This document shows positions 39,001 to 45,000 of a stretch of DNA of 64,000 nucleotides, in pieces. The stretch lies in assembly GCA_963824385.1 (NCBI GenBank), contig CAWGPD010000001.1, forward strand, positions 96,001 through 160,000. Direction: 5' to 3'. The position numbers were made by a program. This DNA is from an uncultured Nitrososphaerota archaeon (GTDB lineage: Archaea > Thermoproteota > Nitrososphaeria > Nitrososphaerales > Nitrosopumilaceae). The first letter of the stretch is position 1. Each line of letters begins with the position of its first letter.

Positions 39001-42000
39001 GTAGTTTATTTGAAGACTGAATAGCGTATAGCCTTTTTAGTTCCTTATCAATAACATCATATCGGAGTTGGTTGTTTCTTTCTTCTTCTAGCTCATCGAT
39101 GCGTTTTTTGATCTCATCCATTCTAGCAAGTGCGATCTCAAGTCTTCTGTCTGCCTCATCTAGTTGTTTTAACGACTCGGTCTTTTTTTCATCAAAATAT
39201 GCTAGCCCTATGATATCCTCGATAATCTTTCTTCGTTCTTCGGCATTAAATTCAGAGATTCTGGTGATGGTTCCCTGCTGTACAATGTTGAGTTTATGAA
39301 TGCCACAATTTGCCACCTCAAGTATATCTAAAACATGGTTTCGGAGCACCTTTTTTTGGTTTAAATAGTAAATGTTCTCTCCGTTTTCATCCATCTCCCT
39401 TGTAATTATTACAGCGTTAGAATCCACCGGAATCTTCCTGTCAGTATTATCAAAATGACAGCTTACACGCGCTATCTTGGCACCATGCTTTGCATTATCA
39501 ACATCATGCAGTAACGAACGAAGCTTGTCTACTCGCATTACCTTTGGAGAGTTTTCCCCAAGCGAAAAAGAGATGGCATCAAGTATGTTACTCTTGCCAG
39601 AACCGTTTGCCCCAGATATTGCAACCAATCCTTGCTCAAAATTTACTATAGTATTCTTATATCCAAAGGATTTGAAGCCAAAGATCTCTAGCTTGCGTAT
39701 ATGTACCAATGCATCCGATAGCGTTTGAGCTGAAATAACAGATTATTGCCAAGTTTCATTGAGCTGCTGAATAAAAATTATAATGTGAGATCTAACTGTC
39801 TCGCTTGCCTTCTACAAATTCTGCAAAGGCCTTCTTTGCTTCAGCATACGGCATCTGGATAGGAGGATGTTTGAAGCAATAAGACGAGATGCTTGTCATC
39901 GGTCCTGATAGTTTTCTGTCTAGTGCAATCTTTAGTCCTCGGATTGCATCGATCATTATTCCTGCACTATTGTATGCATCAATTACTTTGAGTTTTAAAT
40001 CCAACTTGACTGGGATCTTGCCAAAATATTTTCCTTCCAAGTTTATGTAACATATTTTTTCATTATCTATAAAATCAACAAAATCACTAGGACCTATTCT
40101 CATTGGTATATCATAATCTGCCATTGCTTTTACTGCACTTGTCTTACTGATTCTTTTATCTTCCAATCTCTCTTCGTCCAGCATGTTATAGAAATCCATG
40201 TCTCCACCAATGTTTAGCTGATAAGTTCCATCAATCTGTACGCCTCTATCTACAAAGAGTTTGACAAGGGTCTTATGAACAACTGTTGCACCAAGCTGGC
40301 TCATCACATCATCACCTGCAAGCGGGATCTTTTTGTCAGAGTAAGCCTGTTGCCATTTTGGTTCTGATGCAATAAACACTGGAATTGCGTTAAGAAATCC
40401 TATCCCTGCCTCTAATGCCTGACTTGCATAATGCCTTACTGCATTAGTGCTACCTACAGGAAGATAATTTACAAGCATCTCTGCCCCGGTGTCTTGAAGA
40501 ACCTTTTTGACATTGACATCAGGCTCAGAAGAATTTGTAACAATTTGGCTCAAGTGTCTGCCTAGACCGTCAAAGGTTGGGCCTTTTTGAACAGTTACGC
40601 CCATGTTAGGGACTTCGGCTACGGTAATAGTATTATTTGGTTTTGCATAGATGGCCTCAGATACGTCTTTTCCCACTTTGGTATCTGCAACATCAAATGC
40701 TGCCACCACTTCAATATCTCCTGGTTCATATCCACCTAGGTTATAGGCTGTCAAGCCTATTGTATCACGAGTATTTTCTGAATAATATTTTGCGCCCTGA
40801 ATAATTGCAGAAGCACAGTTTCCCATACCTGCTATTGCAATCTTGATTTTCTTACCCAACTTCGATAGACTAGCAAATAATCCATCATATTAATTACTTG
40901 TGATTCCGAACAGAGGATTTTATAGCCCAGAACTGAATTATGGAATTATGATAAAGCCCGGCAAACCTGTCAAGGATATTTGTATAAAAAAAGGAGATAC
41001 CATTGATACAATATTTGATCAAATGTCAAAGTCAGGTGGGTTTGAATCAAAAAATCTTGTGGATGGTCTCAATATTTTAACTTCGATGATAGAAGACAAA
41101 AACTGTCTGAAATTTATGTCGTTTGTTGGTGCCATAATATCAACAGGTCTGAGAGGAGTAATTACAGACATGGTAAAAAATAGAATGTGTGATGTCATAA
41201 TTACTACTTGTGGAGACTTTGGACCATGACATAGCTAGACATTATTCTAATTATCTAGAAGGTTCGTTTACAATGGATGATAGTGAGCTTATGGAAAAAG
41301 AGATTCACAGACTAGGAAATGTTCTAGTTCCAATGAAAAGCTATGGTCCATTAATTGAAGAAAAAATGCAAAAATTTCTTCAACAAGCATACAAAGATGG
41401 CAAGAGAGAGATGTCAACTAGAGACATAACAAAAATGATTGGAGAACAACTCGGAGAGGATTCGTTTCTTTACTGGGCCAACAAAAATAACATCCCTGTC
41501 ATAGTTCCAGGAATAATGGACGGTGCAGTAGGAAGTCAAATCTGGATGTTTTCACAAATTCATGCAGATTTTAAATTAAATATTTTATCTGACGGAGATT
41601 TATTATCAGGATTAATCTTCAAGGCAAAAAAATCTGGTGCACTAATGATAGGAGGAGGCATATCAAAACATCATACTTTATGGTGGAATCAATACAGAGA
41701 AGGTCTTGACTATGCAGTATACATTACAACTGCTCAAGAATTTGATGGTAGTTTGAGTGGAGCACTTGTTAGAGAGGCAATATCATGGGGAAAAGTTACA
41801 AAGAATGCAAAACAGACTACGATACATGCAGAGGCAACAACAATTTTGCCATTTCTTTATTCGGCACTACTTGCAAGAATCAAATAGTATAGATGTTTTT
41901 TTGATAGATATCCTCAAACCCTAGATTAGCATAAAATTTTGATAGATTATCCCGCTCGTAGGCCTCAAGCATTAAAAACTCTAAATTTCTAGAGTGGACC

Positions 42001-45000
42001 TCGTGTAATGCAAAGTCAATCAAAGAGGCAGCATAGCCTTGTTTTCTCCCAGATGGGACGGTTCCAAGACAATAAAGTCCCAAGATTGAATTTTTTTCAT
42101 ATAAAACCATGCATGAACTGCTTGATTTATCCACATAATACTCTGCCAGGGAAAGCGAGTTTTTCAATATAGAACTAACAGGTTCTGCCCACTCTTTGCA
42201 ATCATATGCTTCACAAAAGATCCTAGTCCATAAAGAAACAGTATCAGTTGTTATCTTTATCGCAGAAGGTGTCTTCGATGATAATGTTCTTTTTTTTAAT
42301 ACGTGTTGAGAATCATGATATACAAAGCCCTTACTTTTGAGAAAGTTCTCAAGTTCGGGATAGTTTAGAGAATAGACGTATGGGGTAGAATTATTTTTTT
42401 GAAATAGTTCCATTGATTCTGTAATCATTTTTTCGCTTGTACATGTTACATTTGTCAACTTGTTAAAAAAAATGTCATCTGCAAGTTTTGGATTTAAAAA
42501 TACAGTGCCGCATTCCAGTTGAGTTTGATTACTCCATATTTGTGTAAAACCATTGTCATTTGATTCTGTGTTTTGCATCATGGTATGATTCCAAGTATTT
42601 TGCATATACGATCAAAATCATTTTGGTTTATTCCCTTTCCATTTTTCACTTCGATGCAGATTTTTTCTAGTGTGTCAAGAGCCTTTGGAGAATCAAGATC
42701 ATCATATAGCGATTGTATGAAATCGCCAATTAGTTTACTTATATCGTTATGAGTTTTATCAGAGACTCTAGATTTTGCCAACTGGATTAAATCCAGTAAT
42801 GGTTTTTTTATCAATAGTTCTTTTTCAGAAAAATCCATGTCATCACGATAATGTTTAGAAAAAATATACAGTCGTATTATATTCTGGTCGTACTTTTTAA
42901 TCAAATCTTTTACCCATACAACATTTCCAAGAGATTTTGACATCTTTTCTCCTCCAGATAAAACAAGACCCACATGTACCCATGCTTTAACAGGAATATC
43001 GGTATCCGATAGGAGTTGATACTGTGCAAGATGCGCCTCATGATGAGGATACAAGAGTTCTCTTGCACCACCATGAATATCATAATTCTTGCCAAAATTC
43101 TCAAATGCGACAGCTGTATCTTGCATGTGCCACCATGGAATTCCCTCTCCAAGTTCACTCTTCCATGAGAAATCAAAATCATCAGTGCAGTTCCACAACA
43201 TGATATCTTCTGGATTTTTCTTTCCGGGACCAATGTCTAGTCGGTGTAGGCTCAATTGTTGCTTTGTTTGATGCGAAATCTTGCCATAGTTTTTCACTTT
43301 GGAGATATCAAGATAGACATTTCCATGAGCCATGTAAGCAACTTGTTTTTGAATCAATGTACCAACTTGATTTTCTATATGGGATACATAGTCTGAAACA
43401 AATGCAAGTCTAGTAATACTTTGTATATTTAGTGATTGAATGTCAGTTAGAAATGCGGACGCATAAAATTTAGCGACGTCTTTGTAGGTGGTAGAATTTT
43501 CTTTAGCTTTGTTAAAGACATTTTGATTGATATCTGTAATATTTACAAGAATGTCAGTTCCAAGACCTTGATCATTTAAGCATCTAGCTAGAAGGTCATA
43601 TGTTAAAAATATCCTAGCATGACCTAAATGAGTATAGTCGTATACAGTGGGACCACAGATGAATACTTTGACAAGATTTTTGTCAAATGGAACAAAGTCT
43701 TCTTTAGATGATGAAAAAGAATTAAAAAGTTTGAGCATTTTTTGACTTAACGTCCACCCTGAGACAGGATTGGAGTTAATGTCACAGTAGATCGAACCTT
43801 TGCAAGTCGTCTAATTTTGTGAGTTATGATTGACTCTAGTGAAGATTGGGAATCAGCTTGCAATTTTACAAATATATCATATATCCCATATGTTCCTCGT
43901 ACCTCTTTTACTTCGGGAATTTTTGCAAGCTCTGATATAATATCAACTTCAGAGCCCAGATCACAGTTAATCAGTATGTAAAGTGATTCCATGACTAAAG
44001 TCTATTTTTGCCACATAAAATGATATCCATATTTAAAAAGGCGTATTCGATAACTCGTATATGGCAAATGAGACTGTATTTGTAAGAGAGATAATTCCAA
44101 TCGATGTAAAAGACGGCTATCTCATTGATGGTTTTCCATATACAGGATTGGCAAATGCCATAGCAACAGAATCACTTGTCAATAACACCGCTCAGTTTGA
44201 ACTAGCAGGTGTTCTTGATTCAGAATTATTTCCTCCAATTAGCATAGTAAGAGATGAAGTGCCAAACTTTCCAGCAAGAATTCTGGTTAATAAAAATCTA
44301 AGACTAGCAGTATTTTCATCATATCTTACTCCTCATGAATCAATTCATCGTGAAGTGGCAAAGACCATGTTAAAGTGGGCTAGTGACCACAAATGCTCAC
44401 TTATCATCAGCAGCTCTGCAATCAAAAGTGATGAGGATGCACCTTTTGTAATAGGAGTTGGAAGTACTGATGCGGCCAAGAAGAAACTGCGTGATGCATC
44501 TATTCCAGTATTAAAAAATGGTACAATACCCGGCATTCCAGGAATTTTACTAAATGAGGGATTGATATCAAACATCAATGTCATTGTACTCTTGTGCAAA
44601 GCCAGAGAATCAGGTCCTGACTTTAGAGCAGGTGCAGAGATTTGTATGGCAATGTCAAAACTAGTTCCAGGTGCCTCATGTGATCTTAAATCATTACTAC
44701 GTGAAGCTGAAGGCATAGAAGAAAACCTCAAACAGACAGAGCAAGATGCAGGTCCACTCCGAGATGCAATTTACGGATGACATACCAAGAACGTTCCATT
44801 ACAAAAGACAACTTGGAGAAATTTTTAAGATTATTAGATTCTGATGAAGGCATAAGAATCGATAATGAATCAGGTCACATATTTATCAACAAGACTTTGA
44901 AAAGATACTGCATAAATATTTCAAATAATGACAAAGACGAGTTTATCTACAAAAATACAGTAAAAGATACAATTGAATTTTTACAAGATCATATTACTGA

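Follow-up and report, generated by a model that had tools for sequence, protein, structure and literature searches.

GluQRS (YadB) is a truncated paralogue of GluRS that acts on the queuosine of tRNA-Asp, and the amino acid:[carrier protein] ligases are truncated class II homologues of SerRS that work with a phosphopantetheinyl carrier protein in which a Ser is conserved. In actinobacterial mycothiol synthesis, the last two steps are a ligase step by MshC, a CysRS-like core from which the anticodon domain at the C-terminus is missing, and then an N-acetyltransferase step by MshD, a two-domain GNAT protein with its CoA motif in the C-terminal half only. According to a 2020 review, neither an MshC homologue nor mycothiol has been found in archaea (PMC7278568).

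We analyzed a 64,000-nucleotide stretch (the window) of the genome of an archaeon of the order Nitrososphaerales. ORF and family matches identified a CysRS-derived protein of 386 aa (42578..43738, minus strand), hereafter the ligase, which consists of a catalytic Rossmann core, a CP domain and a helical domain. It is accompanied by a two-domain GNAT acetyltransferase (41880..42605, minus strand; 241 aa as the longest ORF) and by an 82-aa protein of no known family, c2 (44777..45025, plus strand), a predicted partner of the ligase. An earlier note on this DNA had read the first two genes as an analogue of MshC and MshD. The reading that we tentatively prefer, at somewhat less than an even chance, is that they are a tRNA-independent cysteine ligase and an N-acetyltransferase that work in the manner of MshC and MshD but arose independently; the module perhaps makes an acetyl-cysteine compound.

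Both ORFs exist as the earlier note described them, and the overlap of 28 nt that it gave holds for the longest ORFs. The N-termini of related GNAT proteins align with Met9 (42581) of the 241-aa ORF, which from this alignment is likely the GNAT start; the ATG of Met9 overlaps the TGA of the ligase as ATGA, so that the true overlap is probably 4 nt. As longest ORFs, 25 of 26 full-length pairs are spaced between a 28-nt overlap and a 36-nt gap, and the remaining pair (L018) overlaps by 149 nt because its ORF start is over-extended. Short-read contigs from other runs carried both genes without an indel or a listed base difference; record 15 of X2 had no other letters across 41138-43734 and a single gap at 41216. 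The ligase has, 8 nt upstream and also on the minus strand, a gene for a stand-alone Lrp/AsnC ligand-binding (RAM) domain of 81 aa (43747..43992; PF01037, E 1.2e-11). Its homologue was at the same place in only 2 of 30 loci, those of the window and of G099, and the gene may have been added to the operon in a lineage-specific manner. In the window, c2 is 1 kb from the ligase with a PAC2 gene in between; in most relatives it adjoins the ligase head-to-head.

We compared the ligase with known families. It scored 271.8 bits against PF01406, 308.3 bits against the CysRS model TIGR00435 (cut-off 340; model positions 1-387 of 466 covered) and 236.5 bits against the MshC model TIGR03447 (cut-off 485.1; aligned over 20-373), reproducing the CysRS and MshC scores (308 and 236) reported before. 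The ligase has the HIGH and KMSKS motifs and the Cys/Zn site of MshC, lacks an anticodon-binding domain as MshC does, and matched the solved MshC chains 3c8z and 8hfm (E 1.8e-46). Membership in the MshC family was rejected, since the MshC score is far below its cut-off and lower than the CysRS score. The absence of DALR_2, given in the earlier note, applies to the window protein, for which a Pfam scan gave no DALR_2 match, but not to the family, as 21 of 34 short forms still have a DALR_2 match. The domain absent from every one of these 34 is CysS_C (PF23493), which was found in the full-length relatives. The short forms do end well before true CysRS proteins, as claimed: they stop 0-13 aa past the end of the window protein, and the full-length forms extend 57-63 aa further.

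A larger alignment of short and full-length forms bore out the retention of HLGH, KMSKS and PHHE. The change of the Cys of WHIEC to Asp, which had been put forward as a feature of the short forms, occurs in all 38 of them but also in 6/6 full-length CysRSs from their own clade and in G376, while the residue is Cys in 12/12 CysRSs of the other type; the change is thus a clade trait and no marker of short forms. We then took the 83 positions common to at least 17 of 18 full-length CysRSs and scored them in the 38 short forms. Thirty are kept in nearly all short forms, including C28, H37, G39, T68, D69, W203, H204, H232, H233, E234, K265, M266 and S269, and 53 are relaxed. The window ligase keeps HIGH, KMSKS, C28, D207 and H232, and the catalytic residues of HIGH and KMSKS are invariant or nearly so in 34 to 38 sequences that represent 14 families. 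In contrast, 35 to 38 of the 38 short forms have lost each of I75, H117, K183, K213 and Y214, which all or nearly all of the full-length CysRSs in the comparison share. These comparisons support the view that, at the level of sequence, the short ligase keeps the adenylate-forming and cysteine/zinc residues without the anticodon-binding end. It shares its fold and catalytic motifs with canonical CysRS, but we rejected its assignment as such because it falls below the TIGR00435 cut-off, has no CysS_C and keeps only 30 of the 83 shared residues.

The genome encodes a separate full-length CysRS (G000:C4:238867-239739; a 467-aa ORF with DALR_2), in agreement with the earlier note. Every module-bearing genome at least 95% complete likewise has a full-length CysRS, and in no near-complete genome is the short ligase the sole CysRS; its identification as the housekeeping CysRS was therefore rejected, and it probably no longer charges tRNA. 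In a CysRS tree, all 38 short forms make up one clade (SH-aLRT 100) within which families are monophyletic, and this clade sits beside full-length CysRSs that are the sole CysRS of their genomes (family f12, G016). The short ligase is thus best read as an ancient derivative of the original CysRS of the order, with a single loss of its anticodon-binding domain at the C-terminus. That the short forms branch within the CysRS clade of the order (SH-aLRT 100), in a tree taken without any MshC sequence, argues for an origin independent of MshC.

The GNAT was examined for its relation to MshD. The window protein is itself below the Pfam cut-offs, and all 26 members of its family match GNAT models, Acetyltransf_7 included. 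The NCBIfam matches to it at E up to 0.01 consist of NF010241 alone, at 17.9 bits, and we rejected its assignment to the MshD family by sequence. Its AF2 model (pLDDT 95.3) has a tandem-GNAT fold, and MshD (2c27) ranks fifth among its structural neighbours (Z 15.4, rmsd 4.3 over 223 residues). The acyl-CoA motif (R/Q-x-x-G-x-G/A type) is found only in the C-terminal half, where R187-x-x-G190-x-A is conserved, with R187 and G190 invariant; Y225 is also conserved. The protein thus has the GNAT-superfamily fold with an acyl-CoA pyrophosphate-binding motif and, as modelled, the arrangement of MshD, two tandem GNAT domains of which the C-terminal one would be catalytic. Acetyl-CoA-dependent tandem GNATs matched the model at Z 15.4-19.4, compared with 13.7-14.2 for Sba18/Sbb17 and 12.4 for FemX; these lower values and the presence of the CoA motif led us to reject placement in the Fem, aminoacyl-tRNA-dependent class.

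These data bear on whether the ligase still acts on tRNA, perhaps with c2 as an RNA-binding subunit in trans, so that it charges tRNA-Cys or modifies a tRNA and the GNAT acts on or uses Cys-tRNA. The retained HIGH and KMSKS motifs, the helical DALR_2 domain of 21/34 short forms and the aminoacyl-tRNA-using folds among the GNAT neighbours (Sba18, Sbb17, FemX) fit such an activity, and there are known cases of truncated synthetase paralogues with tRNA as their target. One analogy is GluQRS, in which the core of a class I synthetase works on a new acceptor after loss of its anticodon-binding domain, but which is not known to have a GNAT or a small-protein partner. We nevertheless consider a tRNA-acting ligase distinctly improbable, given the loss of CysS_C from all 34 short forms and of K183, K213, Y214, I75 and H117, the acyl-CoA motif of the GNAT, and the detection of a single tRNA-Cys in the genome with no tRNA near the locus. 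The small protein also speaks against it, as c2 shows no similarity to the lost CysRS domain (hhalign probability 0.5%) and is predicted to lie at the acceptor entrance.

This prediction came from modelling of c2, which had no sequence matches in Pfam or PDB and whose AF2 model reached a pLDDT of 91.7. The ligase-c2 complex gave ipSAE values of 0.68, 0.68 and 0.71, whereas the best of the 3 controls scored 0.00; in calibration, 116/157 solved complexes and 2/215 mismatched pairs came up to the mark, under conditions unlike those of the ligase-c2 job, which used its own alignments and three chains. The runs agreed in at least 91% of contacts, with a partner pLDDT of at least 83. In these models c2 sits on the active-site mouth of the ligase, where the acceptor end of a tRNA would enter, with predicted contacts between c2 residues 2-5, loop 40-43 and Y82 and ligase residues W203, L229-H232, S267 and S269. 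Of the six c2 residues that are invariant, five (D23, G25, R27, F36 and Y82) fall in the predicted interface. Ligase position 164, one of the top c2 contacts, is hydrophobic in 31/38 short forms and R/K/V or G/A in full-length CysRSs. The nearest fold to c2 was that of the Bacillus subtilis protein YkuJ (PDB 2ffg), matched at Z 8.1 with an rmsd of 2.8 over 68 residues; it has a similar size and alpha/beta arrangement but only 4% identity, and a Z of 8 falls within the range that is common among unrelated small folds. YkuJ is mentioned as co-eluting with RNA polymerase binders in a preprint (bioRxiv 10.1101/2022.07.26.501605).

Because c2 would cover the active site, it could equally be a substrate or an inhibitor. 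As a substrate, c2 would be the acceptor: the ligase would join cysteine to c2, at a side chain or a terminus, and the GNAT may acetylate it, in a dedicated protein-tagging or carrier-protein system where a small protein replaces tRNA. We regard this as unlikely, though not negligible. The amino acid:[carrier protein] ligases provide an analogy, as they too derive from a synthetase, have lost tRNA binding and have an adjacent gene for a dedicated small protein; in contrast to their partner with its conserved Ser, c2 belongs to no known family and has no invariant Ser. The predicted position of c2 on the active-site mouth, its nearly invariant E5 and invariant C-terminal Tyr (Y82), and the presence of several protein N-terminal acetyltransferases among the PDB sequence matches of the GNAT profile are consistent with c2 as acceptor. 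However, the c2 alignment has no invariant Lys, Cys, Ser or Thr; the N-terminal length of c2 varies, so that its alpha-amine is not fixed in place; Y82 makes its best predicted contacts with the CP loop, at ligase residues 164-165, and not with the catalytic centre; and a search for fused c2 forms found none.

As an inhibitor, c2 would fit a ligase that has become a non-catalytic or regulatory remnant, either a sensor of cysteine or ATP or a protein held inhibited by c2, with the GNAT acetylating a protein target, possibly the ligase. The modelled position of c2 over the active site and the RAM (amino-acid-binding) domain gene attached in Nitrosotalea agree with this proposal. So does faster evolution of the short forms, whose end branches are 0.04-1.06 long (most 0.1-0.6), compared with 0.07-0.16 in five full-length f12 forms and 0.36 in L027. 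Zinc-site and neighbouring residues also vary in the sub-clade of the window; E236, the fourth zinc-site residue, and E206 are among those that vary, so that cysteine specificity is not assured, which also tells against the preferred reading. We think a remnant the most improbable of these explanations, since a mere binding module would not be expected to keep the catalytic HIGH and KMSKS residues invariant or nearly so.

We surveyed the three genes in 121 genomes from 20 families of the order. The GNAT family is present in 60/121 genomes and 14/20 families, more widely than the 8 of 21 genomes first given for the short form, and in 52 of the 60 the GNAT gene is directly downstream of the ligase. 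A homologous downstream GNAT, which the earlier note gave for four genomes, was found in 27 of the 30 best loci, Nitrosotalea included. c2 is likewise present in 60/121 genomes, of which 57 also have the GNAT; the two agree in 115/121 genomes (both in 57, both unfound in 58), a strict co-occurrence that would also suit an enzyme with a dedicated substrate. The module has decayed as a unit in G078: its ligase is split into three fragments, and three stops interrupt the GNAT. G051 has the ligase and c2 without the GNAT, so that acetylation is not always required, a point that is again compatible with c2 as acceptor. No module was found in half of the sample, 13 of the other 14 genomes from the window's family among them; the module thus cannot be the general redox buffer of these archaea that had been proposed.

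Beyond the three genes (c2 was present in 19/21 neighbourhoods), we found no common theme or linked acceptor-making gene. MIPS is near the pair in 7/21 loci, where DHS and SMC accompany it, an arrangement suggestive of housekeeping synteny. The reported absence of an MshB-type gene was confirmed in that PIG-L was not found in the window's genome (G000, 86% complete); across the sample, PIG-L showed no association with the module (23/57 module genomes, 20/58 genomes with neither gene). In line with the earlier note, none of the GCS2, EgtD and BshC families was found in three Nitrosotalea-type genomes. The comparison with MshC and MshD therefore stands in part. The truncated core, the coupled two-domain GNAT with an acetyl-CoA motif and its structural proximity to MshD are in favour of an analogue; scores below the family cut-offs, an origin in the order's own CysRS clade, the lack of a PIG-L link or, as judged from PIG-L, of an evident glucosaminyl-inositol supply, and the extra, obligatory c2, for which mycothiol synthesis offers no counterpart, set the module apart.

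Our preferred reading, that of a tRNA-independent ligase and an N-acetyltransferase, would work as follows. The original CysRS would have lost its anticodon-binding domain once and kept the cysteinyl-adenylate site, and c2 would bind over the opening that normally admits the end of the tRNA. The ligase-c2 complex would activate cysteine, its inferred substrate, with ATP and transfer it to a non-tRNA acceptor amine, and the translationally coupled GNAT would use acetyl-CoA to acetylate the attached cysteine at its free amino group. The product would be an N-acetyl-cysteinyl conjugate, putatively a small-molecule thiol, by a two-step logic analogous to that of MshC and MshD. More speculatively, and at a rather low probability, a CysRS displaced from translation by a second CysRS may have exchanged tRNA for a docking 82-aa carrier or acceptor protein, with the GNAT finishing the product. 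If true, this would be a new synthetase-derived, protein-templated cysteine-transfer system, so far only in Nitrososphaerales.

Ammonia-oxidising archaea drive nitrification in soils and waters, and the three-gene set is present in about half of those of this order. The module is a concrete candidate source of a new cysteine-derived metabolite, and its patchy distribution makes strains with and without it directly comparable. c2 is a protein without a known family for which the models offer a testable binding-site prediction. The locus is also a natural example of the fate of a tRNA synthetase after displacement, as the order holds three states: the old full-length CysRS as the sole CysRS, the new CysRS together with the truncated old one and its two new partners, and the new CysRS alone.

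The short ligase of the window belongs to a module with a GNAT partner and the small protein c2. On the minus strand we found an open reading frame for a CysRS catalytic core of 386 aa at 42578..43738 (PF01406, 271.8 bits) and, downstream of it, one for the GNAT partner of 241 aa at 41880..42605, whose matches to GNAT models were weak and below the cut-offs. The earlier note had described a short CysRS core and a downstream GNAT gene overlapping by 28 nt, and both were re-found at these lengths, with the longest frames overlapping by 28 nt. Met9 of the GNAT frame is the point at which the N-termini of its relatives align, and the ATG of this codon overlaps the ligase stop as ATGA, so that the two genes probably share 4 nt. 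The separate full CysRS that had been claimed for this genome is present as a 467-aa frame with DALR_2 elsewhere (G000:C4:238867-239739). Against TIGR00435 the short ligase scored 308.3 bits (cut-off 340; model positions 1-387 of 466 covered), and the MshC model TIGR03447 came second with 236.5 bits (cut-off 485.1), the ranking that had been reported, with both scores under their cut-offs. Against solved chains the matches were E 1e-74 to 1e-66 for CysRS and 1.8e-46 for MshC. In contigs of other sequencing runs both genes occurred without an indel or a listed base difference; X2 record 15, which spans 41138-43734, showed 0 other letters and a single gap at 41216.

The deoxyhypusine synthase at 40900-41887 was read as two frames (40900-41229 and 41210-41887) and is a single frame of 312 aa in the relative G099. 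Three other runs gave contigs that lack one base at 41216, so a one-base insertion error of the assembly most likely accounts for the split. Further one-base indels between the window and other-run contigs, at 40869 and 45073-45075, suggest scattered indel errors in the assembly, which may partly explain its completeness estimate of 86%. SMC, at about 36000-39709, was also found as two frames (700 and 467 aa) compared with one of 1174-1183 aa in relatives, and is probably split by another frameshift.

We used the ligase as a query against 121 genomes of the order Nitrososphaerales, one of which, the unpublished G108, served for tallies only, and the matches fell into two score classes. Among the 30 best ligase loci, 27 had a gene homologous to that of the 241-aa protein as the next one downstream, in the same orientation, the exceptions being a short ligase alone in G051 and the full-length CysRSs of G016 and G057. 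The profile of the GNAT partner was found in 60 of the 121 genomes, representing 14 of 20 families, and in 52 of these 60 it adjoined one of the ligase matches listed. The other eight comprise four genomes in which contig ends split the genes (G010, G025, G071 and G072), one in which adjacency was seen on inspection (G086), one with a broken module (G078), and G039 and G060. The observation of a ligase-GNAT pair is confirmed and strengthened by these data. Pfam GNAT models were matched by all 26 aligned partners, and the alignment showed a common acetyl-CoA motif, R187-x-x-G190-x-A, together with Y225. The AF2 model was a two-domain GNAT (pLDDT 95.3) with 3frm (Z 19.4), 4ius (Z 16.7), 3tt2 (Z 16.2) and MAB_4324 (Z 15.6) as structural neighbors; MshD 2c27 aligned at Z 15.4 (rmsd 4.3, 223 residues), and aminoacyl-tRNA-dependent enzymes ranked lower (Z 12.4-14.2).

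Clustering of the open reading frames from 20 neighborhoods of 16-19 kb and the window revealed c2, a family of 82-119 aa that was absent from the earlier account of the locus. In the window it is an 82-aa protein at 44777..45025 on the plus strand, and in most loci it stands head-to-head beside the ligase. Its HMM matched in 19 of 21 neighborhoods and its profile in 60 of 121 genomes. For 48 of these 60 the listed coordinates place c2 less than 5 kb from the ligase; in family f15 it is located elsewhere in the genome, away from the ligase. Both c2 and GNAT were present in 57 of the 121 genomes and neither in 58, with GNAT only in G071, G073 and G108 and c2 only in G002, G020 and G051. By hand count, the presence of the two agreed in 72 of the 75 genomes of six mixed-presence families. 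Of the 14 other genomes in the family to which the window belongs, 13 gave no match to the module.

Some loci departed from the common arrangement. L041 (G051:C24), in a 99%-complete genome, carries an intact short ligase of 380 aa and c2, and a genome-wide search of G051 found no GNAT partner. At L054 (G001:C28) an opposite-strand frame of 491 aa, which may be an insertion, separates the ligase from its GNAT. At L074 (G078:C4:12000-20000) the ligase is broken into fragments of 197, 81 and 113 aa, the adjoining GNAT has three TAA stops and a c2-like match lies alongside, so that the entire module appears to be decaying together.

Six residues of c2 are invariant (L20, D23, G25, R27, F36 and the C-terminal Y82), and its AF2 model reached pLDDT 91.7. 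Neither Pfam nor PDB sequences gave a match, Foldseek with the model returned nothing at E up to 0.001, and a protein atlas search returned unnamed archaeal clusters only. The best match in a wide structural search was YkuJ (Z 8.1), the others being parts of papain-like folds (Z ≤6.6); judged from the predicted model, c2 has no clear structural relative. No fused form was found among 269 stored proteins, and none among the longer proteins of a large collection, which is weak evidence by the tool's own account. The reading of c2 as the detached anticodon-binding domain of the ligase found no support, in that the c2 HMM matched nothing in the ligases and hhalign of c2 with CysRS C-terminal tails gave a probability of 0.5% (E 0.12). 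At 44061-45025 in the window, a same-strand PAC2-family gene (44061-44780) shares 4 nt at its stop with c2, an arrangement also seen in G099 and absent from other families.

A tree was built from the 56 ligase frames of at least 300 aa in the fetched loci (LG+G4, quick search, SH-aLRT), with pieces under 300 aa excluded and one over-extended frame trimmed; warnings concerned the long branches of L070 and L071 and unusual composition in six rows. The housekeeping CysRS type of this genome formed one group (12 rows, support 100), and a second group (44 rows, support 100) comprised the full-length CysRS of G016, five full-length CysRSs of family f12 (one clade) and the short forms. All 38 short forms fell into a single clade with support 100 and a stem length of 0.32, inside which families were monophyletic. 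G016 and the f12 genomes with a match have one CysRS each, and neither c2 nor the GNAT was found in any of the 10 f12 genomes or in G016 (0/1); two CysRS-type matches were present in all module-bearing genomes with a completeness of 95% or more. Taken together, the tree and the distribution of CysRS and its partners show three states in the order: the old enzyme alone, the second enzyme with the truncated old one plus c2 and GNAT, and the second enzyme alone. We infer that the old CysRS was truncated once, anciently, after a second one had rendered it redundant, and that the short form was then inherited vertically and lost several times over; since only the other CysRS type roots the tree, the direction of these events is not proven. 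Vertical descent also speaks against a defense or toxin-antitoxin reading, which we rejected, PADLOC having given no match for the four proteins submitted. Outside the order, a c2 homologue (E 3e-27) was found in G376 (loci L079 and L080), from another family of the phylum. The sole CysRS of G376 is full-length and of the old type (477 aa, with WHIED and CysS_C), c2 lies on a different contig, and a search for the GNAT partner was negative. G376 may stand for an earlier state, or c2 may serve an unrelated purpose there.

The Asp that the earlier note reported for the WHIEC cysteine of the short forms was seen in 38 of 38, but G376 and all 6 full-length enzymes in the second group of the tree have it as well. 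Since full-length relatives share it, this residue is uninformative on a new function. Of the 83 reference positions that 17 or all 18 of the full-length CysRSs, both types included, have in common, nearly all short forms kept 30, including C28, H37, G39, T68, D69, W203, H204, H232-E234, K265, M266 and S269. Positions I75, H117, K183, K213 and Y214 were lost in 35-38 of the 38, and the 12-member sub-clade to which the window's ligase belongs has in addition lost T43, D72, D170, R200, G202, E206, F230, E236 and E241. CysS_C was detected in none of 34 short forms, DALR_2 in 21 of them; full-length relatives have both. Read from the alignment, this pattern fits an enzyme that would retain adenylate formation and have lost the canonical tRNA role. 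Net charge and pI of the ligase cores, c2 and GNAT ranged too widely to tell anything.

We co-folded the ligase, GNAT and c2, with c2 as the scored partner and three controls. The ligase-c2 complex scored 0.68, 0.68 and 0.71, compared with 0.00 for the best of the three controls. In calibration, 116 of 157 solved complexes attained the mark for this score, as did 2 of 215 mismatched pairs, counts that hold only roughly here because our own alignments and the use of three chains differ from the calibration. Contact agreement between runs was at least 91% and partner pLDDT at least 83. In the predicted complex all confident c2 contacts were on the ligase, at residues 72, 155-157, 161, 164-171, 183, 186-188, 200, 203, 229-232, 267 and 269. 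By alignment, W203 corresponds to W205 and H232 to H234 of E. coli CysRS, and S267 and S269 lie within KMSKS. Given the roles in cysteine and zinc binding that we take the equivalents of W203, H232 and KMSKS to have from the E. coli structure literature, c2 would cover the active-site opening. Five of the six invariant c2 residues fall in the predicted contact list, and 31 of 38 short forms have a hydrophobic residue at ligase position 164, where full-length CysRSs have R/K/V or G/A. Both patterns agree with a real interface, and the binding of c2 to the ligase is a prediction.

The proposed analogy of the pair to MshC and MshD, the last two enzymes of mycothiol synthesis, gives a fair description of how it might work, but membership in those families fails and no acceptor pathway is in sight. 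PIG-L was not found in this genome (86% complete) and was rejected as a co-varying partner, its frequency being 23 of 57 among the genomes with the module and 20 of 58 among those that have neither c2 nor the GNAT. The absence of known thiol pathways that had been asserted agreed with our searches of three Nitrosotalea-type genomes, in which the GCS2, EgtD and BshC families were not found. According to PMC7278568, InterPro searches did not reveal MshC in archaea, and mycothiol is undetected in them; excerpts of PMC11580382 and PMC5424206 contain nothing bearing on the module. Literature searches on mycothiol in ammonia-oxidizing archaea or Thaumarchaeota, on MshC in archaea, on CysRS paralogues, on CysRS in Thaumarchaeota, and on an aaRS paralogue with a GNAT gave nothing about the module.

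A gene for myo-inositol-1-phosphate synthase (MIPS; 39792-40859, minus strand) lies two genes from the pair. In 7 of 21 loci, from families f1, f4 and f15, MIPS was located on the same strand at a distance of 2.3-3.4 kb downstream, always with SMC and usually with deoxyhypusine synthase (DHS) alongside, so that these loci repeat the gene order ligase-GNAT-(DHS)-MIPS-SMC. This proximity is suggestive of an inositol-bearing acceptor, but inherited housekeeping synteny is more likely. The genes up- and downstream in 20 loci (radical SAM, PMT_2, DUF488, MsrA, molybdopterin oxidoreductase and others) had no shared function. There were no tRNA genes at 30000-55000 and no Rfam match at 39000-47000; ARAGORN, run without intron search, found one tRNA-Cys in the genome.

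The discovery of c2 points beyond what the MshC/MshD analogy covers. The main rival reading, in which c2 itself is the acceptor, we consider improbable. The best reading, which we put forward tentatively, is a cysteine ligase that works as a complex with c2 and needs no tRNA; an N-acetylation step would come after ligation.
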